DNA of 64,000 bases from a virus. The stretch lies in the IMG/VR virus record IMGVR_UViG_3300025687_000026, positions 43,061 to 107,060 of that record. One strand, 5' to 3'. The position numbers and the translations under genes are program-made. Positions 7,721 to 64,000 of this stretch are shown here, one piece after another (within the stretch, counting starts at the first letter, position 1; each line of letters starts with the position of its first letter). Under the pieces are notes generated by a model, which saw only the letters and a list, made by a program, of their open reading frames with translations, did not search any database and was not told the DNA's origin.

Positions 7721-9129
7721 TATGCGTCACCTCTGTATGTGATTGGAGTGGACTTGCTACCACCGAGGGTTTCTTCGTCACTACTTCCACCGAGCACGCC
7801 CCTGTTCATGGCTTTACCGATGATAAACCCTGAGAGGCCGTGATTCTGAATTGTAATGATGGGAACCGTGACAATTTCGATGTCACCAAACAACGAGAAG
7901 TTTTGTTCAATGACCTGCTCGACGACTTCAGGCCGACGGCCGGTGTTCTGAGCACCCTCAAGAATGCCTTGCAGCACGCCTTCAATGCCGCTGTCAACGG
8001 TGAGGAAAACAAGGTCAGCGGTGTTCTCCGAAAGGTTGTGACGCACTTCGGTGAGGATGCGGTTGCGTCCTTCATATTCGATGATTTTACCCGGTCGCAA
8101 GTCCCATGAAGCGGTGTGACCTGAACTGGTCTTGTTACCGGCGAGAAGGTTGTTGGCCTTCAACACGCTGCGTGCAACACGACGGGCCGCCTCGTTGTTT
8201 CGCACCGTGAAGTCTTCAATGACCTGCGGGTCCTGTTGCACATCGCCACCACGACCACTCTGTCGCTCAGCATCGCTGACTTCGGCGTAGGCGGTATCGT
8301 TGACCGAGAGGGGTGTGCCTTGCACGATAACACGGTTGCTGGTGTTGTCGACTGGGTTGGTTCCAGCAGGCCCGGTCCTGTTGTTAGCGTCGACGAAACG
8401 ACCGCTTTCACCGAAGTTGAACGGCACATAGAGCAGGCTACCAAAGCGCTCAAAGTAGATGATGCGATTGTCATGACGCCCAAGGAAACGCAACGCCGTG
8501 ACGAGGTTGACTCCGTAGAAGTCGGTAGCGATAAAGCGGGTGCTGTGACGGCGACGGTCACCGCTGGAGTTGCTGGGAGTGAGCGGAAGTGCGATGTTGA
8601 CCGAGGTGAGCGTATCAGCGATGTCACGACCAAGACGCATGGCCATGTCGGTCGTGCGGAAACCGACATCAATTGGCTGCGCTGCGTAACCTGCCGTGCT
8701 GTTGAAGCCCAGTTCACTGAGCGTTTTGCCTTTCATGTTCCGCACTGCAAAAACAGAACCCTTGTTTCCAGTGGAGTGACTACCGAGTGACAGGCGCTCA
8801 GTCTGCTGGTCTATAGAATACAACATCCTCGGACTATTTGAAGCAGCATCGCTACGCATGTAGAAGATGCGATTTTGTGAAGTGTGACCCGGCGTTGATG
8901 TGTGAGTCAAAACGACACTGTCTTGACGCTCGTCGATGGTGTAAGAGTGCGTTGATGCGACAGCGTAGGTTGAGGTCTTGCGTTGCTTGACGGTGACCTT
9001 AGCCTGCGTTGTGCCCTGCATAGCAATTTCACCAAGGTGCACTGCGTTGTCGACGAAGACTGGCTTGCGCACTTGTTTCATCACGACATCGGTGTCACCG
9101 GTCGTGCGTTGCTGTGCGAGGAAGGTCAC
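7720..9129 (-). CDS. Putative tail tip / baseplate hub protein (469 aa)
   Basis: Position in the tail operon; hub-like segments (NRVIVQG, WDLRPGKIIEY...ILTEVRH). Confidence 0.5.
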   Translation of the reverse strand: MTFLAQQRTTGDTDVVMKQVRKPVFVDNAVHLGEIAMQGTTQAKVTVKQRKTSTYAVASTHSYTIDERQDSVVLTHTSTPGHTSQNRIFYMRSDAASNSPRMLYSIDQQTERLSLGSHSTGNKGSVFAVRNMKGKTLSELGFNSTAGYAAQPIDVGFRTTDMAMRLGRDIADTLTSVNIALPLTPSNSSGDRRRHSTRFIATDFYGVNLVTALRFLGRHDNRIIYFERFGSLLYVPFNFGESGRFVDANNRTGPAGTNPVDNTSNRVIVQGTPLSVNDTAYAEVSDAERQSGRGGDVQQDPQVIEDFTVRNNEAARRVARSVLKANNLLAGNKTSSGHTASWDLRPGKIIEYEGRNRILTEVRHNLSENTADLVFLTVDSGIEGVLQGILEGAQNTGRRPEVVEQVIEQNFSLFGDIEIVTVPIITIQNHGLSGFIIGKAMNRGVLGGSSDEETLGGSKSTPITYRGDA

Positions 9130-38389: not shown

Positions 38390-41300
38390 TCATTCATTTT
38401 CCGATTCTGCTTCATAAGCGAATGACTGCGCTCCATTTTTCTCTTTCAGTCTCTTGCTACGGGCGCTCGGGTATTCCGGCTCCGGGTCCTCCGTAGGACG
38501 GTCCAACATGTCCCAGTCAGGAATGGATTGTTCAGATGTGAGGCTTGTAGGGCCACGAGGCGATTCGATACCGGACCCAACATCAATCCCCATACCACGG
38601 GCACCGGGACCACCGGTCATCTTTTCCTTCTCAAGACGGTCAACGATGTCAGCGATGCGTAGTAGGGTCTTGGCCATAACTTCAACTTTCTTCGGCTTGA
38701 GCACTGTTTCTGCATCGTCAGCCTCAATAACGCCTGCTGATTCTTCCTCAGCCTGCTCTCGTTCTTTGGGCTCAGCCATGCTTCTGCCCTCTTCCATCTT
38801 CTCGGGTTTAACGCCCTTCATCATCAGTGAAGCAGCGGGCGACCATAGAGGTCGAACGCTTTCAGCCAGCAACAACGGGTATTCACTACCTTGAAGTTCA
38901 CCAATTGTTGACTTTGGTGAGTGTGCCCAAGTCCCATGGGTGCCCGTTTCCATTTTGTAGACAACAGTGTCGACTTCAGGGAAGGTCAGGATGAGACGGT
39001 CTTCTTCAATGTCTACCGAAAAGTGAACGGGGATAACAGGATGGGACTTGGTCAATAGCGAAAGCGTCTCCAATGAAACAGGAGCGTCATCGCTTTCACC
39101 AGTCACCTTGGAAGCCGTAACATCGTAGATGGTCTTATCGCCACGCTTTTTGGACTTAACACCCGACACTGAGACACTGACAACATCACCTTCGTTGAAT
39201 GGCTTTGGACTGGTGACTGTGCCGACATCGAGGTAGGATTCACCTTCGTATTCTACACCACGGTTACCCAATCCTTCGGCATCCAATGGTCCTGCTCCCA
39301 AGCGGTAGGTGTAGGGACCCTTACCTCGAACATCGAGAATTATCAGGCTGACTTTCTTGTCAGGACGGAGCAAGAACCACTTCGGATGACGACGCTCACC
39401 ACGCATGTAAGTTGAAGTAGCGTCACGCAACAGTATGCGCCCGTCTTCTTTGCTAAGGCTCTCGACCACTGAAGGTAGACCTTCGTCATCGGTCAAGCGT
39501 AGATTATGAGGGCCGGGAACGATGATGTGCTCGTGACTGTCAAACTGTCCTCGCAGGACCTTTAGTCGCTCACGGACATTCATGTCAGCGATGTTGGAAT
39601 CATCGTATTCGATAATGTCCACGATGTGGATTTCATCACCATGGCGCACAGCGTCCAACATCCAGTTCTTTTCACTCATGGCCTTGAACTGTGTTTTGTC
39701 TTCCGAAGACAGCGGAACATCACCTTCGGTGTCGTAGGCTGTAATGTGACCACCCTTGCGGCGAACAATGAAACGCTCGCCTTCAGGCAACATTGACACA
39801 GCCCACTCACCACTAAAACCACGGAGGGCCTCGAAGTCTTTGAGAGAGAAGATACGGTGCATCGGGAGAATCGGCATCGGCTTCTTACCATCGTTCTTGA
39901 TGAGAACATCCGGGTCCATCAAAGCCACGAGAGACTTAGCGACATCCACAGGGATGTCAGACTCCGCTCGACCTCCTTGTTCAATGGAAGGGGTGATGGC
40001 GTTGGGCACGCTCATCACTTGACCGGGCCCAGCAAGTGCTTGATTGACTATCTCTTCACCATGAATCTCGTTGAGCAAAGGTCGCTGAACTGAATGAAGG
40101 AACTGCTGGTTCGGCATGTTTGTTCCACCAACGAACTTCTTACCATCCCATTCCACACCCACCGTCGGTTGCTGTCGATAACCGTGTTCCATACCGCCAC
40201 TGACATAGTAGTCCCCGATGTTGGCCCCCTTAAGAGAGGTAGCGGGGTGAATAGGGCGACCATGTTGACGATTCAGCACTGTCTGTCGAGTCGTGTCGGT
40301 GTCAATTTGAGGTTTGATAAGAAGGTCCTTGTCAATGACAGCAGGGTTCACTGTCACTACATCGTGAATCAGTGACTTCACACTCTCTTTAAGCGCACTA
40401 TTCCGTGGGTCTTTGACAGGGCCCATAGGATGGCGAGTCAGACCATACTTGGCTGCTTCTTCCTCATAACCACGACTGAACAAGCGAGGGATGACGCCGA
40501 GTTTTCCACCGTAAGCAGTCTTTACCCAATCGCTCAATCCTTTCGTGCTCTTCCCCTTCGAGTCCTCAGCCATTCGACCCGTGGCTGCTTTTTGACGCTC
40601 AGCCTCACGGTAGCGTTGAACAACAGGCTCATTGTCATAGACTCGGTCAAACTCCTCAATGTGGTTAATGTGCTTGTCATGCGACAGCGAGATGTCCTGA
40701 CCACGAGGGTGAAATTGCATTCCGGTGCTGAGCAAAGTCCCGTGAGTCATCGCCCGAAGTCCACCGTCTTCAGGTGCAGAGTCACGCACCTGTTCAGCGA
40801 GTCTCTTGTGCTGTTCATGTAGTGGGTCTTCCTCATCAAAGTGGAAGCCAAGCGCCTGCATCACATCTTCAGTGCTCATGTCACGGGTAATGTCAACGCC
40901 ATGTTGCATGACACTGGTGAGCATGTTACGATGAGGAACAATGGTTTCACCGGTTACTTTTGAAGCAACAGCGCTGGCAGATTCACGCTCTTCCTCATCC
41001 AAACCCGGTCCATAGGTAGTCAAACCATGTGTATCATGCGGCACTCGCATCAGCATGCGGTTAGCGTCGTAGAACAGACGAGAGGTGTTTGCGAGAAACT
41101 TCAGTTTATTCGTAGGGTCAAAGGCCGTAGGGTCTGCCTTCTCCATGATTGGTTTGAGCCGCTTCGCCATCTCGGTGATGGCTTGTAGGTCAGCACCCAT
41201 CTTCTCATCAAACTGCTGATGCGCATACTTGTAGGCCCTTCCTGTCTTTTCTCGCATCCCCTCAACTTCTTCGAGGTGACGGAGATTGGACTTTGCTTCA

Positions 41301-43807
41301 GCCAGTCGTTCCATCAAGTCTTCAGGCACCTCCTCTTCGGCACCTGCGAACGACTCAACCAAGTCTTCGAGTTGCGAAACTTCCTCCATGGCTATCTCGA
41401 CTTGCTCTTGGTATTCCTGACTGGCCCGCATCGGGGTTTCAATCACGCTCCGTCCAGTCAAACCATGGAAGTTGGAAAAGACCTGCGGGTTGGTGGGGTC
41501 GTGAGAGCGAGCCTGCTCAAACTTTGGTTGCGACAGTTGGTCGTGACGCAACATGATGAAATCAGCAGGGTCGTGAGGCGGGTGCAATCGACCGAGGCGA
41601 GTTGTGATGTTATGTGTGAGACGGGCATTGTGACGATGTCGAGTTTCACTCCCAACTTCACCAGCGGACATGATAGGGTTGTGAGAAGAGGTTGGATGTT
41701 CTTCCAACCTGTGGGTAGGCCTCTCACTTCCAATCAAACTTTTACGCTCATCAGGTGTGAGAGGTCCGAGTATGTTTGCTGTTTCAGGGTCAAGAGTGGA
41801 GTGGCCGACATACGGTGTGTTTTTCGTATTGCGAGAGCGGTAGCGAATCCCCATCCCGAATCCGTATTTTTGGTGAGTGGAAGCATCCCATAGCGATTGA
41901 GCCCCAGCGTGAGTGTCGCCTTTCATCCCATGGCCACGCACAGGTGGGACATATCGAGCAAACATACCGCTGTTTTTGCGACTGGGAGTAATGATACCGT
42001 CTTGACTGATATGACCAATCAGGCTTTCACCGCTTTTGTCTTTCGGCATCCAATCATGGAGCATCTCAAGATGAGCAAGAGGGTCACGACCACCACCGCC
42101 ACGGATGTAAGGCAGGTGAAAAATTGCACCGTTGCCGACCGTCCCATGAGGCGTGCGCACCCACAGGTCAGCCTCATCCTCAGGAATGGCCTCGTCACGA
42201 GGGCCGTTGAAACCCAAGTAAGAGTGGGAATCTACATTCCGCACACCCTTGTGTTTGAATAATTCATTGAACGCTTCTGCTTTACCCTGCTCAAGTTTCT
42301 TTAAGTCTTCAAGGGAAAGCGGGCTCTCGTCTTCGGAAAAGTGACCCTTACCAGTGAACTCAAAGGAGCCATCCTTGTTTTGTTTGTAACCGAGCAAGTG
42401 TTTCAATGCGGCTTCATTGACGCCTTGCTTTTCTGACTGTTCAGCGTTGCGCATCGAATCGAGTGGAGTGCTACTCGCCAAGTGACCCTTTAACTGGCTA
42501 AAACTCTTCAAGGCACTAAGATGTGTGAGCGGTTCACCCCCATCGTCGTGCTTCTCATTGAGTGCACTGAGAATGGCTTGCGCCATTGTCCCGTGTTCAT
42601 CATGGGGTGTTTCGTTGAGAGCCGTATGGAGGATTTCGTAAGCGTGGTCTTTCATGTCACGAATGTCGTCTTCTCCTTCCATGTGTTTGCGTTGATTCTG
42701 TGAAGTGTGGAGTTGACCGCGCATTTTGTGAAAGAACTCAGGTGTAAAGCGATGAGCGATGTTGCGTTTTATGCGCCCTGTCGAAACCTTGCGACCGTCG
42801 CTAAGAGTAATTTTTTGCACATCGTCACTGCTCCTAAGAGAGCCCTTCTCCTGCAAGTGCTTGACGACGGCGTTTCGGTCCGCTGGCTTAAGCCATTCAA
42901 GGCCAAGGTTGTAACCACCCCATCCAAGGGAAGTGCGTAGACCGTTCATGTCAGGCTCTTTGTTCATCCAACCCTGAATGGCGTCGTCCATGTGCGCTTG
43001 AGCGATGGCGAAGTCATGTTCCTCGGGGTCGGGGTATTGCTCAATGAGTGCCTTTACCGTGCCGGGATTCTCCTGCTTCCAGTCTTCAAGATTATGCAAG
43101 TAGAGGTCGTGGAGATGACTGTCATGTAAAGGACCGGCAAAGGGATGTGTCACCTCTCCGCTGTAGGGGTCTTTGTGTCCCACTATGTTCATGTTACCTT
43201 TCTTGCGATGATGTTCTTCTTGCAGCGATTCTTGTTGCTTTAACTGTTGAGCCAAGGATGGGCGGCCGGGAGCGGGAGGGAGGTATAAGTCACGCAGTGT
43301 TTCGATGTAGGCAGGCAAGCCGTTCACGACATTTTTCTGAAGCAAGGGGTGATGTTCCTCTTGGAAAGGATGGTCGTTAGGGTAAAGCGCATGGGACTGA
43401 AAATCAGCCTTAGGCCACAGCGAAACAAAATCGTGAACGCTGGCCTCATTGAAACGCCCAGTCCAATGATGAGCAGGAATGGTATCAGCAAGGCGACCTG
43501 CACTGTAGTAGGAGACGCGTCCTTGGCGCTCACGACCTCGCTCAACCATGCCTTCGCGCTCAGCACGACGCTGTTCCCGACGAGCCTCTCGCCCTCTATT
43601 AACAGACAACCTATCGAGTTCTTCCTTCGCTACGATGTCACAGATGAAATCATCAGCCCCCTTCATCACCTCGTAGCCGTGACGCTCAAGGTTTTCACTG
43701 GCGAAAACGAAGTTGGCGACTGCGTTCTCGTAGTCGAGTTCATCGAGAATGGACTTCAACAGGTCTGAGCGTGCTCGGAGATACCAGTCAGTAGCATCTT
43801 CTCGCAC
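38390..43807 (-). CDS. Large head-module protein (~1805 aa) with C-terminal degenerate ATP-dependent DNA ligase (adenylation + OB) domain
   Basis: EWAVSMLPEGERF, MLDAV, IHIVDII, RERLKVL and ILLRDATSTYMRGERRHPKWFLLR align with ligase motifs I-V. GTG 43807 preferred because the longer ORF overlaps the upstream gene. Confidence 0.7.
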   Translation of the reverse strand: MREDATDWYLRARSDLLKSILDELDYENAVANFVFASENLERHGYEVMKGADDFICDIVAKEELDRLSVNRGREARREQRRAEREGMVERGRERQGRVSYYSAGRLADTIPAHHWTGRFNEASVHDFVSLWPKADFQSHALYPNDHPFQEEHHPLLQKNVVNGLPAYIETLRDLYLPPAPGRPSLAQQLKQQESLQEEHHRKKGNMNIVGHKDPYSGEVTHPFAGPLHDSHLHDLYLHNLEDWKQENPGTVKALIEQYPDPEEHDFAIAQAHMDDAIQGWMNKEPDMNGLRTSLGWGGYNLGLEWLKPADRNAVVKHLQEKGSLRSSDDVQKITLSDGRKVSTGRIKRNIAHRFTPEFFHKMRGQLHTSQNQRKHMEGEDDIRDMKDHAYEILHTALNETPHDEHGTMAQAILSALNEKHDDGGEPLTHLSALKSFSQLKGHLASSTPLDSMRNAEQSEKQGVNEAALKHLLGYKQNKDGSFEFTGKGHFSEDESPLSLEDLKKLEQGKAEAFNELFKHKGVRNVDSHSYLGFNGPRDEAIPEDEADLWVRTPHGTVGNGAIFHLPYIRGGGGRDPLAHLEMLHDWMPKDKSGESLIGHISQDGIITPSRKNSGMFARYVPPVRGHGMKGDTHAGAQSLWDASTHQKYGFGMGIRYRSRNTKNTPYVGHSTLDPETANILGPLTPDERKSLIGSERPTHRLEEHPTSSHNPIMSAGEVGSETRHRHNARLTHNITTRLGRLHPPHDPADFIMLRHDQLSQPKFEQARSHDPTNPQVFSNFHGLTGRSVIETPMRASQEYQEQVEIAMEEVSQLEDLVESFAGAEEEVPEDLMERLAEAKSNLRHLEEVEGMREKTGRAYKYAHQQFDEKMGADLQAITEMAKRLKPIMEKADPTAFDPTNKLKFLANTSRLFYDANRMLMRVPHDTHGLTTYGPGLDEEERESASAVASKVTGETIVPHRNMLTSVMQHGVDITRDMSTEDVMQALGFHFDEEDPLHEQHKRLAEQVRDSAPEDGGLRAMTHGTLLSTGMQFHPRGQDISLSHDKHINHIEEFDRVYDNEPVVQRYREAERQKAATGRMAEDSKGKSTKGLSDWVKTAYGGKLGVIPRLFSRGYEEEAAKYGLTRHPMGPVKDPRNSALKESVKSLIHDVVTVNPAVIDKDLLIKPQIDTDTTRQTVLNRQHGRPIHPATSLKGANIGDYYVSGGMEHGYRQQPTVGVEWDGKKFVGGTNMPNQQFLHSVQRPLLNEIHGEEIVNQALAGPGQVMSVPNAITPSIEQGGRAESDIPVDVAKSLVALMDPDVLIKNDGKKPMPILPMHRIFSLKDFEALRGFSGEWAVSMLPEGERFIVRRKGGHITAYDTEGDVPLSSEDKTQFKAMSEKNWMLDAVRHGDEIHIVDIIEYDDSNIADMNVRERLKVLRGQFDSHEHIIVPGPHNLRLTDDEGLPSVVESLSKEDGRILLRDATSTYMRGERRHPKWFLLRPDKKVSLIILDVRGKGPYTYRLGAGPLDAEGLGNRGVEYEGESYLDVGTVTSPKPFNEGDVVSVSVSGVKSKKRGDKTIYDVTASKVTGESDDAPVSLETLSLLTKSHPVIPVHFSVDIEEDRLILTFPEVDTVVYKMETGTHGTWAHSPKSTIGELQGSEYPLLLAESVRPLWSPAASLMMKGVKPEKMEEGRSMAEPKEREQAEEESAGVIEADDAETVLKPKKVEVMAKTLLRIADIVDRLEKEKMTGGPGARGMGIDVGSGIESPRGPTSLTSEQSIPDWDMLDRPTEDPEPEYPSARSKRLKEKNGAQSFAYEAESENE

Positions 43808-43820
43808 ATTCACACCACCG

Positions 43821-44459
43821 TCAATAGCGGCTACGCATGTATTCTGACGGATGGTAGTCGTCCCTCTCTCCTTCGCCCATTTCAGTCGTGCCTTCAAGAC
43901 CGGGGCAATCATCACCGAAGCCGAAGCGGCAACCAGTGAACTGGTTACCACCGCACTGTTCACACATGGCTTTTACGAGTTCATCTTTGGCTTTGGCCAA
44001 GGCTTCCTCGGCTTTAGAGAGCGTGCCGTTCTCGACTTGGCGAGGAACGCTGTCGTGATGAGGATTCATCTGTTGACCCAGTGACTCGAAGTTCACGGAT
44101 TCAGAAGTTGCACCTTTGTTGGTAACATCCGTGCCGGTGTATTCATGCTGGTTGGTATTGTAGTAGGCGTTGCGAGTTTGACCACCGCTTTCAGCAGCAA
44201 ACATAATGTTCTGAGGTTCAGAGTTGAAGGTGGTGTTGTAACCGGGCTGGGCCTTGCTAACATTAGAGCAACCTGCTTTCATGCAAGAGCCGCCTGCTTT
44301 CATCTTAGAGCCACACTTAGGACAGTCCTTACACTCACAAGGCTCTTTGCCGCAGTCACACTTGGCCTTTTCCAACTCGTCTGCTTTCTCAAGAAGGCGT
44401 TGGGCTTTGTTCAGGAGGTCTTGGGCTTCACGGCTGCTGGGGGAGGGAATAGGCTTCAT
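43821..44459 (-). CDS. Cys-rich hypothetical protein (212 aa)
   Basis: CDCGKEPCECKDCPKCG...; many hydrophobic-x-K-A motifs. Confidence 0.65.
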   Translation of the reverse strand: MKPIPSPSSREAQDLLNKAQRLLEKADELEKAKCDCGKEPCECKDCPKCGSKMKAGGSCMKAGCSNVSKAQPGYNTTFNSEPQNIMFAAESGGQTRNAYYNTNQHEYTGTDVTNKGATSESVNFESLGQQMNPHHDSVPRQVENGTLSKAEEALAKAKDELVKAMCEQCGGNQFTGCRFGFGDDCPGLEGTTEMGEGERDDYHPSEYMRSRY

Positions 44460-52722: not shown

Positions 52723-53993
52723 TCCTCAACCCCCATTGTCGACATGTTTTGCTTCTTCCCACTGAACTTTTCAGCAAGAGCGGCACCTGCTTCAGCAGCG
52801 TCTTTACCAGTCGTTGGCTCAGCAATTCCATCTGACGGGTCAGCAGCAGTTGATTGAGGAAACGCAGCAGCCATACCTTCCGCCGTCTTGGGGGGTATGG
52901 GGAGTTTGCTTTGCTCCGTCGATGAAGCGGTGGTTGGCGATGCCGTGACAGGTGCACCGGGTAGTTGTGTTTGATTTGGGTCATTGGGCGCTCGTGATGC
53001 TGGGTTAAATTGAGGCACGGGCTCGAAAACATCGGTGTTGTAAGCGCCTCCTCGCATGTCAAACGGTTGCCTCGCTGTGGTTGGGTTGAGGAGTCGTTCA
53101 ACACCAATCAAACGCTGCTCTGCCCCTCGTAGCGTGCCGGGCAGGTTGTATTGAAGAGCCCTTTGCAGTCGGGCTCGCTCAGCCTCAAGACCGGCTCGGT
53201 ATTCGGCGTAAGGAGGGGGAGTAGGACCTGACGGGACAGGTGCAGGTGTGGGTTGAGCCACGGTGGGCTGAGCGACGGCTACACGATTTGCACGACGGTT
53301 TTCCAAAGCCTGACGCCCTCGCTCCAAACCTTGCTGGGCTCTGCGTTGAACACCAACTGAACCAGCGCCAAGGCGTGCTCCCGCTGCACCAGCAGCGCTT
53401 TCAAGATGAGGGCGAGCAGCACTGGTGGTTGTCATCCCCCGAATAGCAGCCGAGCCAAGACCCTGTTCAAGACCTGCACCTGACGCCCCGGCCTGCTCAA
53501 GCGCAGTGACAGCCGAGAGGCCACCGAGTGCTCCGGCAAGACCAGCACCAAGCCTTCGCCCAAAGACGCCGACCTTACCTGCCCGTTGACCAGCAGTGCG
53601 AGCGTCACCTATCTGCTGTTCAGTCATCGGTCCTTGTCGTCCTCTCCTACCCCCTTCAACAACGCCAGCGAAGCCCTGATGTCCGTAGCGCTCTTGATGA
53701 CTACGAAACTCACCGGCTTTGACCTTGCGCTTCATTTCAGCAAGTTCCCGCCGCTGCTGAGCGGCGAGGTCAGGGTCTTCAAACTCAGAAGGCGAAGCAG
53801 CACCTTCCAAGTTAGGAGCGGTGAGTGCCGCATCTCGCCTTGCGACATAGACTTCTTCGGGCGTTCGCTGCGTCTGCGCTTCCAGCGGCAACCCTTTCGG
53901 AGCAGGGCCGCCAATTAGTTGCTGCTGAGTCAAGTTTCCCGCAGGGTCAGCGTAGAGTTCAAACGATTTCAGCACGAGGACTTTACTCATCAA
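52719..53993 (-). CDS. Hypothetical Gly/Ala/Pro-rich protein (424 aa), possible internal/ejection protein
   Basis: N-terminal VLVLKS; glycine-zipper-like LGAGLAGALGGLSAVTAL. Confidence 0.6.
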   Translation of the reverse strand: MMSKVLVLKSFELYADPAGNLTQQQLIGGPAPKGLPLEAQTQRTPEEVYVARRDAALTAPNLEGAASPSEFEDPDLAAQQRRELAEMKRKVKAGEFRSHQERYGHQGFAGVVEGGRRGRQGPMTEQQIGDARTAGQRAGKVGVFGRRLGAGLAGALGGLSAVTALEQAGASGAGLEQGLGSAAIRGMTTTSAARPHLESAAGAAGARLGAGSVGVQRRAQQGLERGRQALENRRANRVAVAQPTVAQPTPAPVPSGPTPPPYAEYRAGLEAERARLQRALQYNLPGTLRGAEQRLIGVERLLNPTTARQPFDMRGGAYNTDVFEPVPQFNPASRAPNDPNQTQLPGAPVTASPTTASSTEQSKLPIPPKTAEGMAAAFPQSTAADPSDGIAEPTTGKDAAEAGAALAEKFSGKKQNMSTMGVEE

Positions 53994-56329
53994 ATCCCCC
54001 CTACACTGATTTTGACAACCTTGACCACATCCGATGAGATGTTGAGGCGCTTGGCTATGCGCTCCCAGTCACCCATTTGATGGGCGATGGAGCGAATATC
54101 GACAGGTGTGAGATTGAGGTGCTTAGCAAGATGGCGGACACCGTGCTCATCAGCGATGTTAACTGGACGAGTCAAAGCGTGCTTCATGACGCGGTCACTC
54201 TTCATGGCGTCATCGCGCTGCATCTGCTCCATGGCCTTCATCAACCGGTCCGCTTCAGGCAACATGTTGTCCTGACTTTTCATGTATTCTGTAAGAAGAC
54301 GCTGCCGTGGGTCACCAAAAGTCTGCTGGAATTGTCGCTCTTGCTCAGTGAGTTCACCTGTGCCGGGCTTTGGACCAATGCCGCTCAATTCCATGAATTG
54401 ACGCAAGGTCGCTGGGTCAGCCTGACCCACACCCATACGGGCAGCCTGCTGTTCAGGCGACAATTGCCCAATTGGGATGCCCCCGGTGCGGCGAACGGCC
54501 ACAGGTGCAGGTGCTGCCACAGGTGCAGGTGCTGCCTCAGGTGCAGGTGCTGGTGCTGGCGCAGCCATCGGAGGCGTAGCGGCAGGCGGAGCCACCACTC
54601 CTTCAGTCACAGGACGACGAGGTGCAGGTTCAGGACGAGGTGCGGCTGTAGGTGCTACCGATGCTGCTCCCATGGACAAGTCAGTAAAGAGTGGGACATG
54701 CTCAGGGACGGACGGGATAAGTTCCTCAGGGTAACCCATCACCGTTCGCCCAGCAAGACCGGTCGTCGGTAGTTCATCGGGAACAGCACGACGCTCTTCA
54801 TGCCCAAACGCACGAGCCATCATGTCGGCGATACCTTCGATAGCCTGACGGCGAGCGTTGACTTGCTCTTCCTTAATACCCTCGTGACTCACGCCCAAGG
54901 CTTGAAGCGTCTGAGCATCCGGCTGGTAATCTCTCAACTGAGGAAGGGATTCATTGTGATGAGCCAACATGGCCTTGACATACATCTGAGCCATGTTCTT
55001 GTGTGTGCTCCCGTTCTTCGTCGGATGCTTTGTGCCCGACATGAACTCAGGCTCAAGTGGAATGTGCTCACCTTGAAGAGCATGCTCCATCAAATTATCA
55101 AACTGAGTTCGCTTGCCTTCTTCGTCAGGGTCGCCACCGAACGCATCCAACAAGTGACTGAAAATACGAGCACCTGAACTGGGACGCTTCTGACCACCTG
55201 ACTTAAGTCGACCGAATAAGGCCGTGAGGGCCGAAGTTGAGCCCAATTCATTCAGGAGATTTTTCAGCATCTCTTCATTGGACAAGACCGTCTTAAGAGG
55301 CTGCATCGTGTAGTTGGTCCCGCCAGCAGTTTGAGCCGTGTTGATAGGCACCTGCACATCAGGGATAATATCGGGATTTTCAGCAGCCCGCTTCAAAGCC
55401 TCCTTGATATGACCACGAGCACTGCGCATGGTTTCAGACGGTGGCGTTTTTTGCGAAGCCAACTTGTAGTGCATCAAATCAGGCATGTGGTGCGCAACCG
55501 ACCACGACTGCACTGAGTCAAATGCGGGATTAAAGTTGACACCGCCGGGAGCGTTGGTGATGTGTGAATCAGGAAGTTGTCCACCCTGACCAATGACATC
55601 TCCACCGCGACCTTTCAAACGCCGACCGGCTGGATGAAGGTCGTCGATTGAGATGTGGCCTCGTGTCGTCCACTCCATGTTAGCAATGTCGTCGAGTCCG
55701 TATTCTCGGACAATGGCCGCCAGTTGTTTCCAGTAAGGAATCGAATAGGATTCAACAAAGTGACCGACCTTTTCGTTTCGGTTCGGTCGATTGGTAAAAG
55801 TCGTAACAAAATGTCCATCAACGCTACGGTTAGGACGACGGGTCGGTTCCATGTTTGCGTTGTAAGGAGTGGCCTTGAGTTTTCGCCACTCCATGGAGTC
55901 AACATCAGGTAGATGGTGCGCTCCGCTTCGGTCCTTATGCGTGTCATTGTATTCGTTAATGGCTCGCTGTAGGAGTTCCTTAGCCAAGCGTGGGTCGTAA
56001 CCGGCTCGCTCAAGTGCCTCACCGAGATGATGCCATACACCGTCGTGCCCGTGGTGATGGTCGAAGCCGTCAGTGTGATAGGTCATCTCCCCGTGTTTGC
56101 CTCGTTGAAACTCACCCTCAAGCAATTCACCCATGCCCGCATGACCGGAAGGGTGAGGTCGAGAGTTACCGTAGTGAGCAAAAAGTGGGACATCCGGCCC
56201 TTCGGGGTCCGGGTTAATCGCTTCGGGAGGGGGGTTCGTCAAAAGATGCGGCACACCGTTGAAAAAAGCGTAGTTACCGTGCCCTTTCAGCAGAATGTCC
56301 GCTGACTTCAACACGAACACGGGCCTCAT
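53990..56329 (-). CDS. Hypothetical protein (779 aa), His-rich N-terminus, Pro/Ala linker, C-terminal HTH-like end
   Basis: N-terminal FVLKS/ILLKG motifs; WERIAKRLNISSDVVKVVK at the end. Confidence 0.65.
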   Translation of the reverse strand: MRPVFVLKSADILLKGHGNYAFFNGVPHLLTNPPPEAINPDPEGPDVPLFAHYGNSRPHPSGHAGMGELLEGEFQRGKHGEMTYHTDGFDHHHGHDGVWHHLGEALERAGYDPRLAKELLQRAINEYNDTHKDRSGAHHLPDVDSMEWRKLKATPYNANMEPTRRPNRSVDGHFVTTFTNRPNRNEKVGHFVESYSIPYWKQLAAIVREYGLDDIANMEWTTRGHISIDDLHPAGRRLKGRGGDVIGQGGQLPDSHITNAPGGVNFNPAFDSVQSWSVAHHMPDLMHYKLASQKTPPSETMRSARGHIKEALKRAAENPDIIPDVQVPINTAQTAGGTNYTMQPLKTVLSNEEMLKNLLNELGSTSALTALFGRLKSGGQKRPSSGARIFSHLLDAFGGDPDEEGKRTQFDNLMEHALQGEHIPLEPEFMSGTKHPTKNGSTHKNMAQMYVKAMLAHHNESLPQLRDYQPDAQTLQALGVSHEGIKEEQVNARRQAIEGIADMMARAFGHEERRAVPDELPTTGLAGRTVMGYPEELIPSVPEHVPLFTDLSMGAASVAPTAAPRPEPAPRRPVTEGVVAPPAATPPMAAPAPAPAPEAAPAPVAAPAPVAVRRTGGIPIGQLSPEQQAARMGVGQADPATLRQFMELSGIGPKPGTGELTEQERQFQQTFGDPRQRLLTEYMKSQDNMLPEADRLMKAMEQMQRDDAMKSDRVMKHALTRPVNIADEHGVRHLAKHLNLTPVDIRSIAHQMGDWERIAKRLNISSDVVKVVKISVGGI

Positions 56330-58890: not shown

Positions 58891-59160
58891 ATGTTCAGGA
58901 AGGTGCCTCGGGTCCCGAAACAAGTCACTGAACTAAAGAATGCAGGCAAAGACATCATAAAACGCCGCCGAGTTAGCAAAGAAGAGTTCATCCGCCGTTT
59001 AGAAGTCTGCATGGATTGCGAGTATCTGCTCAAAGCGGTGAATGTCTGCCGTCAGTGTGGGTGCTTTACCAAAGTGAAGGCTGCGTTACCTTCAGGTGAC
59101 TGCCCACTCGGGCGCTGGTCATTGAGTGAGTCGAGTGTAGATGCGCCCAAGAATGAGTGA
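58891..59160 (+). CDS. Small Cys-rich protein
   Basis: RRLEVCMDC...CRQCGCF..VK......CPLGRW, a conserved-looking pattern common in marine viruses. Confidence 0.7.
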   Translation: MFRKVPRVPKQVTELKNAGKDIIKRRRVSKEEFIRRLEVCMDCEYLLKAVNVCRQCGCFTKVKAALPSGDCPLGRWSLSESSVDAPKNE

Positions 59161-59376
59161 GGACACCATGATACCAATGAGGTAGGCGCTGACTGCGTCA
59201 GCGCTCAGCGTGTTGCCCTTGAGCATGAGAATCAAACCAAAAATCAGAATCATGCTGATGAACTGCACCATAATCATGTCTGTGATAACGCTGCGTGAAG
59301 GAGCGAAAACCTGCATACTACTTTGTGAAAACGAAGTAATGGCTTGCTGCGAATAGTTCGGTGGGTTTCTCTGCAT
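59119..59376 (-). CDS. Small membrane protein, 2 TM (85 aa); holin-like size and topology
   Basis: Hydrophobic segments MIMVQFISMILIFGLILML and AVSAYLIGIMVSSLILG. Confidence 0.65.
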   Translation of the reverse strand: MQRNPPNYSQQAITSFSQSSMQVFAPSRSVITDMIMVQFISMILIFGLILMLKGNTLSADAVSAYLIGIMVSSLILGRIYTRLTQ

Positions 59377-59385
59377 GTTTATCCC

Positions 59386-60057
59386 TCACTGTTTAGGTAG
59401 TCCCATGAAGGACCGTGCGACGCTTCCAATGCCTCCGCCCACTCGTTCCATCATGCCCTCGTCAGCCAATGCTGCTTGAAGAGCACCGCCCATCATGGAC
59501 TGTTGACTCATGGTGAGAATCTGTTGACGCTGCATCTCAGCCTGCTGAATTGTCTGCTGGCTGTTGTTCACGATTTGATTGAGAACCATAGCGACATTCT
59601 CAGCACTGAGCGTTTTGAGTGAGTCGGGCAACGAAGCGATATTGAGTTTCATCGTTCCTTCATCATCATCAATGACGAAAGTAGCGTCCTTCAGGATGTT
59701 GAGCAACGAAAGTGAGGTAGCCGTAGCCACGAGGTCAATGACTGCAGCAAGACCGCCAGTAGCAATAAAGCGATGGATAGGGTTCTGCGATTGAAGCAGA
59801 GCGTTGAGAATCTCCATTTCACTGGGAGGAGCAATCGGTTGTTGAGCATATTGTTGCATTTGACCATACTGCTGTTGCATTCCCATACCACCGACCATGC
59901 CGGACATGAAGGTGTTCTGCTGAGGTTGCATGGTGTTCACACCAAGGCCTATACCACCCTGCTGCATGGCGTTCATCCCACTCATTGGGGCTCCAGTGGC
60001 CGAAAGATTCAATCCACTGCTGGGTTGGGGCTGGCTGAAGTTAAACATCTGACTCAC
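59386..60057 (-). CDS. Gln/Met/Gly-rich protein with hydrophobic segment (223 aa)
   Basis: Low-complexity N-terminus; FIATGGLAAVIDLVATATSLSLL. Confidence 0.65.
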   Translation of the reverse strand: MSQMFNFSQPQPSSGLNLSATGAPMSGMNAMQQGGIGLGVNTMQPQQNTFMSGMVGGMGMQQQYGQMQQYAQQPIAPPSEMEILNALLQSQNPIHRFIATGGLAAVIDLVATATSLSLLNILKDATFVIDDDEGTMKLNIASLPDSLKTLSAENVAMVLNQIVNNSQQTIQQAEMQRQQILTMSQQSMMGGALQAALADEGMMERVGGGIGSVARSFMGLPKQ

Positions 60058-60995
60058 ACCTGCCCAGCGACTCCTTCGCCATCAAGGTTCTGTTGAGGCA
60101 TCAACATGGCCTGTTGTTGTGCAAGCAAGGCTTGGAACTCCGCTGTAGGCATGTTCATCTGCTGCATTTCATGCTGGAAAATGCGCAGGTCGAAGACAAT
60201 CATCGTGACATCGTTGATGCCTGTCTCGGGGTTTTTGTAATGAAGGATGCTGATGCCCTTTGTTTTGCCTTGGTCACGCTCAAGTTCAGCAAAGAAGGGT
60301 TCATACTTTTGCAGCATCGCAGGTTGCGGGTCCTTTTGCCTCACTGAAGACACAGGCACGGTCACGATAGACACGCCTCGCTTAACTTTGTCACGCAAAC
60401 GGTTCGGGTTCATCTCGCTCTGCTTGTCCTCTTCGGACTCCCACTTGGTCAGAAGATGGAAAAGATGGAGGTGCTCAGGACAGTAAGTCCCTCGCATCTT
60501 TTTACCGCTGGTGACGCGGTCACGAGCGATAAACGCCTCGGGCTGACCGGTAACGGGGTTCGACCAATACATCTCCCACAGACTACGACCGCTATCTTCG
60601 TCGCAAATGCGCATGTAGAGGTTGTCATGCTGAATCAACGCAGCACAGTTACAACCATCAATGACGCAGGTCCCAGTGTCCTTGTCGTAACGGAACTTGT
60701 TACCAAGCCAGCGCAGCGGTGAAATACGACTCCGTTTAGCGGGACGCAGTAATTTGTAAGCCTGCTTAATGTCACGACGGCGAGCCTTGCGAGGGTCGGG
60801 GTGAGTGCTGGGATAGAAGTTGACCTTCGGCACCTCGATGTTTTGAGCAGCAGCAATTCGCTGCATGCCTTGTTGAGCAGCCATCATTTCAGCAAGTGCG
60901 GCTTGAGTCAATTGCTCGTTGCCCTGTGCAGCCAACATCGCAAGATGCGCTTCGTTGGTTTGATACAAAGATGGATTATTCGGTCGCAGCATCAT
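60054..60995 (-). CDS. Hypothetical protein (313 aa) with Cys/His cluster
   Basis: CVIDGC...C...YCPEH; ATG 60995 follows a GGAGGGTG RBS. Confidence 0.65.
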   Translation of the reverse strand: MMLRPNNPSLYQTNEAHLAMLAAQGNEQLTQAALAEMMAAQQGMQRIAAAQNIEVPKVNFYPSTHPDPRKARRRDIKQAYKLLRPAKRSRISPLRWLGNKFRYDKDTGTCVIDGCNCAALIQHDNLYMRICDEDSGRSLWEMYWSNPVTGQPEAFIARDRVTSGKKMRGTYCPEHLHLFHLLTKWESEEDKQSEMNPNRLRDKVKRGVSIVTVPVSSVRQKDPQPAMLQKYEPFFAELERDQGKTKGISILHYKNPETGINDVTMIVFDLRIFQHEMQQMNMPTAEFQALLAQQQAMLMPQQNLDGEGVAGQV

Positions 60996-61182
60996 GAGAA
61001 GCACCCTCCACAGGAGCCATGACAACGACCATCTTCCCGTCCTGCACATGGAAGCGCCAATCCACATCGTCTCCGGCTGATAGGTTGAAGTGATTGATAA
61101 TCCACATGGGAACAGTGGTCCGCAGGCTACCGGTCTTAGACGACGCAGCGTGCAGCGTGGTCGTGGTCACATTCCTGCCCAT
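60976..61182 (-). CDS. AbrB/MazE/SpoVT-like DNA-binding protein
   Basis: GSLRTTVPMWIINHFNLSAGDDVDW matches the swapped-hairpin consensus. Confidence 0.75.
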   Translation of the reverse strand: MGRNVTTTTLHAASSKTGSLRTTVPMWIINHFNLSAGDDVDWRFHVQDGKMVVVMAPVEGASHDAATE

Positions 61183-61228
61183 GCTTTCACCAAGTGTGCT
61201 TCAAATAAAAGGGTTCCCCACAGGTCAA

Positions 61229-61954
61229 TCATGAGGTCAACAGGTCAACCATCGTTTTTTCAACATTCCAACCGATGCGCGTCGCCATGAAAGAGCGCTT
61301 TGACGGTATGCCTGCTTTTTGCAGACGAATGAGGTCATCACGAAAGGGGTCGAAGACTTTGTGTTCACCGATACGACCGTCGTGCCATAACTTGGACGCT
61401 GTCTCATCGAAGAAGCGGTCAGCCTTATTGGCCACCAACATGACAACCCGAGGAGCGTAGCGGCGTCCTTTAAGTCGAGAGCGTAGCGAACGATAGCGGT
61501 AATCACGGGTGATAAGACGGTCGACAAGAAAACGGAAGCCTGCAATCTGTTGCAGACCCTCATCGCCTCCTTTGAAGGCCCGCTCGTCAAACATGTAGAC
61601 CACAGCCTCCACTCCACGCGTAACCATATCCTCAATCCACAGGTTCCAAAACCGCTCTTGCCCACCGACATCGGCCGAATAAACGACTCGCTTCTGCCCG
61701 TCCCAGCCGATGCGTTTGCGTGTCGGCGTGGGCATGCTGTAAGCCCCGATGATTTTGAACATTTTTTCGTGCGTGGTCCGCTCCTCGTCAGGAATGGCTT
61801 CCATCTCACCGGGCGTGGTCATGAATCGGTCAAGGGTTGTTTTTCCGACTTTGGGGGCTCCGTAGATGCCGACTCGTCGTGGTCGCCACGAATTGTAGAG
61901 GGACTGTCCCCACACGGCAGCGCCAACCAGTGCCGTCCCTGCAGGTTCAACCAT
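61229..61954 (-). CDS. Arf/Ras-superfamily small GTPase (241 aa)
   Basis: G1 GAPKVGKT, G2 Thr (ERTT), G3 DVGGQ followed by W, AVVYMFD, G4 NKAD, G5-like MATR. Confidence 0.85.
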   Translation of the reverse strand: MVEPAGTALVGAAVWGQSLYNSWRPRRVGIYGAPKVGKTTLDRFMTTPGEMEAIPDEERTTHEKMFKIIGAYSMPTPTRKRIGWDGQKRVVYSADVGGQERFWNLWIEDMVTRGVEAVVYMFDERAFKGGDEGLQQIAGFRFLVDRLITRDYRYRSLRSRLKGRRYAPRVVMLVANKADRFFDETASKLWHDGRIGEHKVFDPFRDDLIRLQKAGIPSKRSFMATRIGWNVEKTMVDLLTS

Positions 61955-61964
61955 CGACTCACCT

Positions 61965-62228
61965 CTACCACCACTTCAACCAGTTGGTGAAGTCTTTGAG
62001 TTTTTCAACTGTCCAATCAATCGTTGATTCATAGACGCTGAACTCGGTGTTATGAAACTCGATGCCGCTTACGACGAGAGCGGTTAGAAAAGATGCGATG
62101 AGCGCTTTGACCCATCCCAATGTTCGTTCATATGCCGTATCAACCGTGTTAGCAAGATGAATCGCTCGAAGGGTTTCTTCAGTTGCATTGTCCGACACCG
62201 TCTTGAAAATACGACCCATGCACTTCAC
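61965..62228 (-). CDS. Small single-pass membrane protein (~87 aa)
   Basis: WVKALIASFLTALVVSGI. Confidence 0.65.
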   Translation of the reverse strand: MKCMGRIFKTVSDNATEETLRAIHLANTVDTAYERTLGWVKALIASFLTALVVSGIEFHNTEFSVYESTIDWTVEKLKDFTNWLKWW

Positions 62229-62794
62229 TCACCCTTCTTGGCGAATGTGCCGTCCTTTTTTCGAGGAACATCTGACTTTACCTCTTCTTCGACGCCGAGG
62301 CTAAGTGGAGCGGGGGCTTGAGCGGCATGAGTGGGAATGCGCATGTTGTCAGCACGCTGCTGGTCGTAGGTTCCAACCAGTGAAGGTGAGCCACCTTGGA
62401 CGCCCCAACTCGGAGGCATTTGACCGGGATTGGCTTCCATCCACCGCAACTCCTTTTCGAGTTGGGCTTCCTGCATTCGCAGTTCCATTTCAGCACGGCG
62501 CTGGTCGAAGGAATACTGCATGGTGCGATACTTGCTGTTGCGTTCTCGGTCAATCTGTGACATACGAGCACGCTCTCGCATGCCTTGCTCAAAAAAGACC
62601 TTGAACATGTAGTAAGCGATGCCTTGGATGAAGAACGCCCCCATGGCGTAGGTAAATCCATTCAACATCGGTGTTTCGTTCTTTAGCCATATGTCAGCAT
62701 CAAAGAGTCCGATGCCGACTCCAACCAGCGTTGACTGTGCGAGAATCAAGCCAAGAAGGCGGATTTCTGCTTCGTGCTGCGTGTCATCATCCAT
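62225..62794 (-). CDS. Membrane protein with 2 TM and coiled coil (~189 aa)
   Basis: LLGLILAQSTLVGVGIGLF, FTYAMGAFFIQGIAYYMF, then an R/E/Q-rich coiled coil. Confidence 0.7.
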   Translation of the reverse strand: MDDDTQHEAEIRLLGLILAQSTLVGVGIGLFDADIWLKNETPMLNGFTYAMGAFFIQGIAYYMFKVFFEQGMRERARMSQIDRERNSKYRTMQYSFDQRRAEMELRMQEAQLEKELRWMEANPGQMPPSWGVQGGSPSLVGTYDQQRADNMRIPTHAAQAPAPLSLGVEEEVKSDVPRKKDGTFAKKGE

Positions 62795-62829
62795 AGCGAC
62801 CACTGGTGAGGGCACTGAGCAGGTAGAGA

Positions 62830-62950
62830 TAAACCTTCCTCGGCTGGTTGTCGCTGGTTGTTCAGGTTGTCTTGAAAAAAGTCCTTACAACATATTATAC
62901 TACTACTATTGTAAATAATATAAACTATACAACATGGACAACCTTCCTCT
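62830..62950. repeat. AT-rich non-coding element with short direct and inverted repeats
   Basis: GGTTGT x3 at 10-bp spacing (62843-62871); TACAACAT x2; inverted GACAACC (62937-62943); AACCTTCCTC x2 (62832, 62940) around an AT-rich core. Confidence 0.6.
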
Positions 62951-62972
62951 TTATGCGTATGCGTATAGGGGC

Positions 62973-63998
62973 TCAGAGGAAGAGGTCGCCACCGCCAAAC
63001 ATCGGGCGGGTCAGGTCATCCTTATCGTCTTCGTCTTCACCGTGGCGCTCTTCGAGCATGCCGACCATGGCCGTAGCGATTTTCTTGTCTTGCTCATCCA
63101 TTGGACCCTGCATCAAGTTGCGTAGGAGTTCAAGGTCCTCTTTCATTGATTTCACCACACGCAGTGTGCCCTTTTCCCTGAAGTGGCGAGCCCGATTGGA
63201 ATGCTCAGGCTCAAGGGTCAAGCGATGGCCTTGTGTGTGACTGACATCCATGTGATTGTGACTTCCCATGATTCCACGGCGTCGTCGCTCTTGGTTCAAT
63301 TCTTCACGATACTTGACTTGGTCAGGACGCTTGTTGTAAGCAGCGTCGTATTCCCGCTTGTGACGCATGGCCTCAGGTGATTTGCGCTCTTTAACAAGCA
63401 CTTCCGAGCGAAGGAAGCCGCCGGACGCCATGCGAGACGCAAGCCCCCCTTGAGATTTATTATAGCGTTCCCAAAAGGCTTCATGGGGATTTTCGACATC
63501 CCATTCAGGAAACTCCTCAGCCATTCGAGCAAGAGCGATGTTGTCGGGATGTTCAGGGTGCGATTTAGCCCCTTGTGACATCAAGAAAAACTGCTTTTCA
63601 CGAGGTAGAGCAGCGGTGTTTTTTGCAGCATCAAAGTAATGCTGCAGGTAGCGATGATATTGGTCATACGCTTCATCAGGGTAAAGATGGTGTTTGTCCG
63701 ACCGAAACATGCCGCTGTAGTATTCAGTTTCATATTCACCACTGGCCGGGTCAGTCCAGTAAGATGGAACATGCTGCCCATCTTTGTTGGAGATAAAGTC
63801 AACGATGGCTCGTTGCTTGTCATGCAGTTCGTCGTAAGGAATGAGGGGATAACCCATGTCAAACGCTGCATCTATAAACTCATCTGATTTTCCAAAGAGG
63901 TCGAACGGATTCGTCATGGATTGCCGGTTGTAGACTTGCTCCATGAAAGGTTGAGTAACGGCGACTGCGTTCTCAAGCGGTTGACCAAAGATACGCTT
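62973..63998 (-). CDS. Modular protein (5' end probably beyond window) with AT-richer module and C-terminal HNH-like basic domain
   Basis: Frame is open to the window end. VLVK|ERKSPEA...DVSH...NRARH...VVK|S. Confidence 0.6.
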   Translation of the reverse strand, partial: KRIFGQPLENAVAVTQPFMEQVYNRQSMTNPFDLFGKSDEFIDAAFDMGYPLIPYDELHDKQRAIVDFISNKDGQHVPSYWTDPASGEYETEYYSGMFRSDKHHLYPDEAYDQYHRYLQHYFDAAKNTAALPREKQFFLMSQGAKSHPEHPDNIALARMAEEFPEWDVENPHEAFWERYNKSQGGLASRMASGGFLRSEVLVKERKSPEAMRHKREYDAAYNKRPDQVKYREELNQERRRRGIMGSHNHMDVSHTQGHRLTLEPEHSNRARHFREKGTLRVVKSMKEDLELLRNLMQGPMDEQDKKIATAMVGMLEERHGEDEDDKDDLTRPMFGGGDLFL

Positions 63999-64000
63999 GT

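Follow-up and report, generated by a model that had tools for sequence, protein, structure and literature searches.

We analysed a 64,000-nt stretch of viral DNA (the window), which covers positions 43,061 to 107,060 of IMG/VR virus record IMGVR_UViG_3300025687_000026 and forms the right-hand part of a 107,060-bp contig. The subject of this study is a cassette of seven minus-strand open reading frames (ORFs) near the right end of the window, in which a divergent small GTPase is encoded together with membrane proteins. The window also encodes an HK97-type capsid protein, a prohead protease, a tail tube protein, a portal protein, the large terminase (TerL), and a thermosome-type chaperonin (PF00118, E-value [E] 1.6e-122), and no tRNA genes were found in it. 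Such a gene set is what the literature describes for magroviruses, a type of tailed virus whose assignment to marine group II archaea is adopted here from published work.

A preliminary description of the window had proposed a co-oriented, tightly spaced gene cluster at this locus. All seven ORFs were found, running from 62794 to 59119 in the order 2-TM (transmembrane) protein, 1-TM protein, GTPase, AbrB-like protein, Cys/His protein, Gln/Met-rich (Q/M-rich) protein, and 2-TM protein, and the junctions between them measure −4, +10, +46, −17, −4, and +9 nt, respectively. The 2-TM, 1-TM, GTPase, Cys/His, and Q/M-rich genes are numbered 1 to 5 (the core of five) below, and TM segments were called by the Kyte-Doolittle scale with a 19-residue window and a threshold of 1.6. 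In the window, the cassette lies upstream of the genes for a helix-turn-helix (HTH) protein and TerL.

Table 1 Features of the GTPase cassette and its borders (window coordinates; aa, amino acids).
Feature	Position	Strand	Basis or remark
Candidate archaeal promoter region (upstream gap)	62795–62972	−	178 bp, AT-rich, non-coding; longest gap of the neighbourhood
Gene 1, 189-aa membrane protein: N-terminal two-TM hairpin, long charged (basic) helical C-terminal tail, low-complexity end	62225–62794	−	ORF
Gene 2, 87-aa single-TM protein	61965–62228	−	TM at residues 36–58; start overlaps gene 1 stop by 4 nt
Gene 3, divergent Arf-leaning small GTPase, 241 aa	61229–61954	−	ORF, motifs, fold
N-terminal Gly/Ala-rich hydrophobic helix of the GTPase, residues 6–23	61886–61939	−	AlphaFold (AF2) model
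G1/P-loop GAPKVGKT, residues 32–39	61838–61861	−	G32, G37, and K38 invariant across the family
G3/switch II DVGGQERFWNLW, DVGG at residues 95–98	61637–61672	−	D95, G98, and W106 invariant
G4 NKAD, residues 176–179, guanine specificity	61418–61429	−	N176, K177, and D179 invariant in the cassette-linked alignment
G5-like FMATR	61277–61291	−	Motif located in the sequence
Accessory AbrB/MazE-like protein, 68 aa	60976–61182	−	PF04014, sub-threshold
Gene 4, 312-aa orphan: basic N-terminal region, C...C / GTYCPEH Zn-knuckle-like motif	60054–60992	−	557 homologues, all unannotated
Gene 5, 223 aa: Gln/Met/Gly-rich low-complexity ends, central moderately hydrophobic domain	59386–60057	−	ORF
Sixth gene, 85-aa two-TM protein	59119–59376	−	Two TM segments
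DUF6171 protein gene, 89 aa, Cys-rich, convergent	58891–59160	+	PF19668, E 1.4e-8, above cut-off

Whether the GTPase gene stays with the membrane-protein genes in related viruses had been set beforehand as a refutation test, and it was found to do so far beyond close relatives. The arrangement was kept in all 80 related IMG/VR loci that make up the sample of the window lineage, where the whole 12-kb neighbourhood is collinear, genes outside the cassette included. The core of five retained its order in four viral lineages, and the GTPases of the other lineages are 32–37% identical to that of the window. In lineage 2 (P0146 type; GTPase 33% identical), the core directly follows the protease and major capsid protein (MCP) genes in 76–80 of 84 loci, the misses falling at contig ends. 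The GTPase of lineage 3 (P0126 type) is 32% identical to that of locus L084 (BLASTP). At L084, the cassette follows a thermosome gene, and the GTPase stop overlaps the start of the next gene. Lineage 4 (P0130 type), represented by an 81-kb metagenome contig (L210), keeps the core order and has a 2-TM gene after the Q/M-rich gene as in the window; its 1-TM and GTPase genes are separated by an inserted gene (L210:7217–7999) for a hyper-acidic 260-aa protein, Asp and Glu being extremely frequent in the C-terminal half. These results confirm that the arrangement is more than chance, and the same order in four lineages with differing genomic contexts indicates that the five genes are functionally linked.

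Gene 3 encodes a real small GTPase, as had been claimed, with G1, G3, and G4 motifs and a six-stranded Ras-like alpha/beta fold. The preliminary description regarded G1–G4 as intact; this holds for G1, G3, and G4, each of which was located exactly, while G2 is uncertain and has a single candidate, T60 (ERTTH), which is conserved in most members but sits in a long insert modelled at a predicted local distance difference test (pLDDT) score below 50. The reported DVGGQ...W signature was borne out, its closing Trp (W106) being invariant in cassette-linked members. The switch II segment DVGGQERFWNLW aligns to DIGGQPRFRSMW of Arl8, with DxGGQ and a Trp seven residues after the Gln as in the Arf family. 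The mean pLDDT of the AF2 model was 66, with values of 73–91 in the core and below 50 at residues 1–22 and 37–77. Foldseek matched the model to Rab, Ras, Rap, and Rho structures with a probability of 1.0. The top rows of a VIA-align 2 search were Arl2, LokiRagO (Lokiarchaeal Rag-like), the signal recognition particle receptor beta subunit (SR-beta), Arl8, and Arf6 (Z 12–13; 152–162 residues aligned); they were effectively tied and stood slightly above other GTPases. The protein is enlarged by a conserved insert of ca. 35 residues at switch I and by other inserts, located behind beta-4 and in the G4–G5 interval; its gene is the most conserved of the neighbourhood (median 75% identity over the 80 loci). 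Two variants were seen among the relatives. In the distant member P0161, G4 and G5 are set apart by a Cys-rich stretch (YCYKCKE...GGCGC), possibly a Zn-binding module grafted onto the GTPase, and P0164 has NKAL in place of NKxD.

The N-terminal segment TALVGAAVWGQSLY had been suggested as a membrane anchor. The segment is present but lies below the TM threshold and is modelled as a moderately hydrophobic helix instead; a TM-grade N-terminus was clear only in one distant sequence, P0201. The helix character is kept in all lineages, with hydrophobic moments of 0.25–0.5 across members, and the N-terminal extension of ca. 20 residues aligns with the amphipathic helix region of GerdArfR1 in a profile hidden Markov model alignment. 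An N-terminal amphipathic helix before beta-1 has been named as a defining feature of the Arf family (bioRxiv 10.1101/2024.02.28.582541).

To place the GTPase among known families, we compared the window protein and a profile of cassette-linked members with family and structure libraries. Alone, the window protein matched TIGR00231 (small_GTP; E 6.5e-4) in NCBIfam, and Roc (E 0.013) and MMR_HSR1 (E 0.05) in Pfam, where no Arf match was obtained at E 0.1 or better; no PHROG family matched it. A first profile search against the PDB had included the doubtful members P0204 and P0201 and was repeated with cassette-linked members alone, which kept the Arf-family ranking at weaker E-values. The best matches of this cassette-linked profile were GerdArfR1 (8OUN; 1.3e-5), a full-length Asgard Arf-related protein (bioRxiv 10.1101/2024.02.28.582541), and Arl8A/B (2e-4), followed by Rab33B (0.025) and SR-beta (0.034); matches to RecA concatemers were repeated P-loop artefacts. 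On the other hand, no cassette-linked member reached the cut-off of Pfam Arf (PF00025; 22.3 bits), the best being P0146 with 16.8 bits, and the doubtful outlier P0204 was the sole sequence above it (36.5 bits). In a maximum-likelihood tree of the viral family and 26 small GTPases, all references of which came from one Asgard genome, the viral clade was monophyletic (100/100) with a stem of ca. 2.8 substitutions per site. The stem attached between the Arf group and the Rab/Ras-like group, and the viral and Arf sequences formed one side in 22% of the bootstrap trees. A tree forcing them together was marginally better with these one-genome references and was not rejected (approximately unbiased test, p-AU 0.56), and long-branch effects are likely. 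The Arf-type assignment of the preliminary description thus holds in so far as the closest solved relatives by profile, GerdArfR1 and Arl8, belong to the Arf family, but Arf membership is not supported. Because of the missed Pfam cut-off, the ambiguous tree placement, the ca. 60 extra residues with conserved inserts, and the variable catalytic Gln, we did not file the protein as Arf; the viral GTPase is best called a separate, Arf-leaning family.

The distribution of this family was examined in cellular and viral collections. A profile search of 1.84 billion representative proteins yielded just 84 matches (E ≤ 0.001), the majority of them fragmentary members of the family itself, and no clear cellular homologue was found there; P0204 (E 4.7e-4) may be a cellular member. 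Among the genomes of 185,579 species, the GTPase occurred on only three short contigs (L168, L169, and L170; 8–16 kb) of magrovirus type with the cassette, binned with Maricaulis, Parvibaculum, and an Asgard metagenome-assembled genome. Since their GTPases are 71–80% identical to the window protein, these contigs are almost certainly mis-binned viral DNA. By these searches, the family is virus-restricted. A recent capture of the gene from the host was considered and rejected because no clear cellular relative was found. The family is nonetheless abundant, with 467 clusters (90% identity) and IMG/VR loci numbering several hundred. A tblastn search of the INPHARED phage collection gave no match, and neither did scans of IMG/VR with the distant members P0130 and P0161 or of JGI metagenomes with P0161. 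The automatic annotation of JGI calls some members 'GTPase SAR1 family protein', and the searchable magrovirus and archaeal tailed-virus papers neither mention a GTPase nor describe the cassette.

The proteins of genes 1, 2, 4, and 5 have no recognisable family or fold in the libraries searched. PHROGs, NCBIfam, and PADLOC gave nothing informative for the cassette proteins except TIGR00231 for the GTPase. For gene 1, whose start is likely the ATG at 62794, one clear TM segment was called at residues 18–39 of a 196-aa reading, and the second, aromatic-rich segment was recognised by eye alone. Both ends of the protein would be cytoplasmic by the positive-inside rule. It occupies the same position in all four lineages and is 27% identical to the lineage-3 protein (E 6e-10), and it matched no Pfam, PHROG, NCBIfam, or PADLOC family and only unnamed viral clusters in the ESM Atlas. 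Gene 2 was present in 80 of 80 loci of the window lineage and 80 of 84 loci of lineages 2 and 3, and also in L081, L084, and L210.

The start of gene 4 is probably near 60992 rather than at 61067, because its homologues are 305–317 aa long. Homologues were detected across lineages at E 3e-25 and 1.6e-6, and the start of the gene overlaps the GTPase stop in L084 and L081. The Cys/His protein of the preliminary description is there, motif included: C109 and C171 are conserved and H174 nearly so in the cross-lineage alignment. The ligands are not general, however, since in the lineage-4 homologue (L210:8802–9533) the otherwise conserved GTYCPEH Cys and His are missing. The AF2 model of gene 4 had a pLDDT of 67; Foldseek found no fold at E 0.001 or below, and the best VIA-align 2 hits were unrelated helical membrane proteins (Z 5.8). 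Its profile obtained nothing better than E 0.85 against the PDB, the ESM Atlas gave no usable match, and the C-terminal residues 220–300 were barely covered. A predicted complex of the GTPase and the Cys/His protein scored 0.42 versus 0.44 for a control with chain 1 replaced and thus speaks neither for nor against binding. Gene 5 lies at the same position in all four lineages with weak cross-lineage homology (21–26% identity; E 0.007 to 3e-7) and matched no family in Pfam, PHROG, or NCBIfam.

The two remaining genes are less widespread. The 68-aa ORF matched PF04014 (MazE_antitoxin) with E 9.4e-4 and 19.5 bits against a cut-off of 24.7, and the PrlF antitoxin of NCBIfam with E 0.036; no PDB sequence matched it, and its AbrB identity should be taken as a lead, not a membership. 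The gene occurred in 71 of the 80 loci of the window lineage and was absent from the cassette in L084, L081, L092, and L210. An AbrB-like regulator had been listed as part of the cluster; the gene is present, but its Pfam match is sub-threshold and it is limited to the window lineage, outside the core. The lineage-limited AbrB-like gene and the Zn ligands lost in lineage 4 suggest that neither is essential to the core. The 85-aa 2-TM gene was found in 80 of 80 loci of the window lineage (median 43% identity), a 103-aa 2-TM gene stands at the same position in L210, and none was evident in L092 or L081. At the lineage-2 locus L092, the capsid gene and the cassette are separated by a gene (L092:5487–5981) whose 164-aa product carries a SAP DNA-binding domain at its C-terminus (4.4e-10).

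The cassette looks like one discrete transcription unit, as judged from its layout with the AT-rich gap upstream and the convergent DUF6171 gene downstream. A TATA-like A/T run lies ca. 100 nt upstream of the ATG at 62794, and the gap may serve as a promoter. The DUF6171 gene, which overlaps the ends of both minus-strand neighbours and is conserved in this opposite orientation in 52 of the 80 related loci, would mark the 3' end of the unit.

Elsewhere on the contig, the first ca. 700 bases recur at the contig end (window 63299–64000 versus contig 1–702), with at least 1 mismatch within the last 100 bases. This repeat may reflect circular assembly or terminal redundancy, and it suggests that the 107-kb genome is probably complete. 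Outside the window, at contig positions 4660–5505 on the minus strand (locus L165), lies the gene for a 281-aa protein whose HMGL-like domain is of the pyruvate carboxyltransferase type (E 2e-24). It is in line with the pyruvate carboxylase genes described from magrovirus group A (PMC11706807) and is probably the auxiliary metabolic gene of that group. An SNF2-family helicase is encoded at L165:12130–14742. The structural region of the window contains two giant minus-strand ORFs, of 5,660 aa (9126–26108) and 1,857 aa (38390–43963). A 779-aa protein encoded upstream of the terminase gene (53990–56329, minus strand) gave a weak match to the eukaryotic Death domain that stayed below threshold (E 3.3e-4; 21.2 bits, cut-off 22.6) and is probably due to chance.

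We tentatively favour, with somewhat less than even confidence, the view that the cassette is a membrane-directed GTPase switch whose role is virion release. Its genes adjoin late (structural or packaging) genes and are tightly packed on one strand, and the switch is probably expressed together with the late genes. Like Arf, Sar1, and Arl8, the GTP-bound GTPase would insert its N-terminal hydrophobic helix into the cytoplasmic membrane, here that of the host, and would cycle on and off this membrane. When bound, it would meet the two co-encoded integral membrane proteins, and the two soluble orphans (genes 4 and 5) would serve as regulator, effector, or both. Together, the cassette products would change the host membrane late in infection, most likely opening or weakening it for the release of tailed virions. 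Phage lysis cassettes such as S-R-Rz of lambda sit just upstream of terminase genes. Release is placed first among the purposes because the position upstream of packaging genes recalls these cassettes, because no lytic enzyme was found in the scanned ORFs, and because no egress system is known for these viruses. The egress of archaeal tailed viruses has been described as 'completely uncharacterized' (PMC10791045), and the one proposal of a putative holin system concerns the non-magrovirus Adrikavirales (PMC11706807). The absence of a recognisable endolysin, noted in the preliminary description, was upheld within the ca. 30 larger window ORFs scanned with Pfam, a scan that was not exhaustive; no lysis enzyme was detected among them. 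The GTP-timed lysis or egress proposed there can only be inferred.

Several observations weigh against this view of the cassette. The cassette itself encodes no membrane-disrupting or wall-degrading enzyme, and its late-gene position fits assembly as well as egress. The 2-TM proteins of gene 1 type are 137–272 aa long, above the typical size of holins. In the AF2 model, the N-terminal helix of the GTPase (residues 4–22) has low pLDDT, and with a hydrophobic moment of 0.29 and a mean hydrophobicity of 0.24, it is weakly amphipathic and moderately hydrophobic. The catalytic Gln (Q99) varies among Q, H, D, E, and A in the relatives. Within-lineage synteny counts for little, magrovirus genomes being highly syntenic, and conservation across lineages alone carries weight. 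Membrane binding, GTP hydrolysis, timing, and lysis by the cassette are predicted properties.

The Arf-leaning features and the N-terminal helix would also suit a non-lytic remodelling, in which the cassette sets up or arranges a membrane-associated site (a platform for assembly or replication, vesicles, or invaginations) and opens no membrane for release. OapA-driven vesicle formation in Haloferax is a precedent (PMC10791045), and Arf and Sar1 recruit coats. The lack of a lytic enzyme in the cassette is consistent with such a role, the low-complexity protein rich in Gln and Met might have a scaffolding function, and in lineage 2 the cassette has head genes on one side and later structural genes on the other. 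Nevertheless, the assembly of tailed viruses needs no membrane, and no coat-like, ESCRT-like, or lipid-modifying gene was found nearby among the ORFs scanned; we consider this alternative fairly unlikely. Structural or packaging genes are invariably neighbours of the cassette, which lies upstream of TerL in the window and follows the MCP gene in lineage 2. This would also be expected if the GTPase were a chaperone or checkpoint for the head, the tail, or DNA packaging and the membrane proteins were tethers or separate from it, and the basic N-terminal region and Zn-knuckle of gene 4 could bind nucleic acid. Against this stand the two membrane-protein genes, which are kept immediately upstream in four lineages with overlapping or near-abutting ends, and the fact that no PHROG morphogenesis family matches any cassette protein. 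In addition, we know of no need for a small GTPase in tailed-phage assembly. A role in morphogenesis or packaging is therefore distinctly unlikely in our estimation.

Membrane proteins combined with a switch protein, in a cassette that heads a leftward gene block after an intergenic region in the window lineage, would fit host takeover or exclusion as well, with the host envelope altered to block superinfection, to change transport or signalling, or to counter defence. We regard this as improbable: no PADLOC defence model matched, and exclusion genes are usually variable, whereas the GTPase is the most conserved gene of its neighbourhood and the cassette is kept in four lineages. That the genes form no functional unit and are adjacent through magrovirus collinearity alone would agree with the syntenic 12-kb neighbourhood of the window lineage. 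However, the five-gene order is kept where all surroundings differ, with junctions that overlap or are shorter than 50 nt, and this explanation, already disfavoured, has very little probability left.

Returning to virion release, we hold it possible but doubtful that these five genes encode the machinery by which a major group of archaeal tailed viruses leaves the cell, with an Arf-like GTPase gating two viral membrane proteins that would open the host membrane when infection ends. If so, bacteriophages would offer no counterpart to this lysis mechanism, and a virus would provide an independent case of Arf-type membrane switching beyond the eukaryotes and the Asgard archaea. The question of egress gains a concrete, expressible set of five genes, which is useful because the presumed hosts are uncultivated. 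The GTPase adds a virus-borne lineage to the few Arf-like GTPases on the prokaryote side and bears on the origin of GTPase-controlled membrane association. Should the cassette do another job, it would still be a conserved gene module, so far unstudied, in a group of viruses that is ecologically dominant.

Among known systems, the viral GTPase resembles the Arf family (Arl8, Arf1/Arf6, Arl2/Arl3, Sar1, and the Asgard ArfR proteins GerdArfR1 [8OUN/8OUM] and HodArfR1 [8OUL]) in its Ras-like G domain, the DxGGQ...W switch II, the predicted hydrophobic N-terminal helix of ca. 20 residues before beta-1, and its best profile and top structural matches. It differs from them in its length (241 aa versus ca. 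180), its extra inserts, the lack of an aromatic residue before DVGGQ, its variable catalytic Gln, and its origin from a virus of Euryarchaeota-type hosts rather than from a eukaryote or an Asgard archaeon. SR-beta is another Arf-related GTPase and has a hydrophobic membrane segment at its N-terminus; its structure (2fh5_B) matched the viral GTPase with Z 12.3 and a root-mean-square deviation of 3.0 over 155 aligned residues (profile E 0.034). Unlike SR-beta, the cassette has no recognised SR-alpha/SRX-like partner, the partners being orphan proteins. OapA/ArvA may be a functional analogue, likened here by description alone, as a prokaryotic Ras-superfamily GTPase that deforms membranes in Euryarchaeota; OapA is a haloarchaeal small GTPase of the host; extracellular vesicles require it, and in Haloferax it drives their formation (PMC10791045). 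It is thus cellular and not viral.

Phage holin cassettes share with the present one the small proteins with one or two TM segments, a charged and presumably cytoplasmic tail, the tight packing, and the position upstream of packaging genes, the comparison with lambda being drawn from general knowledge. They are expressed late, as the cassette would be judging from gene position. The TM hairpin and charged tail of class II holins are present in gene 1 and the 85-aa 2-TM gene, without a family match or an adjacent endolysin. In contrast to phage lysis cassettes, no endolysin, spanin, or holin family match (Pfam and PHROG) was found here, and the hosts have no murein; those cassettes in turn have no counterpart to the GTPase and the two soluble orphans. 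The mimivirus Rab (5xc5) is also a virus-encoded Ras-superfamily GTPase and matched structurally with Z 10.9. It is a recognisable Rab from a eukaryotic host, whereas the GTPase described here has no clear cellular counterpart in the collections searched and is encoded in a dedicated membrane-protein cassette of an archaeal tailed virus.

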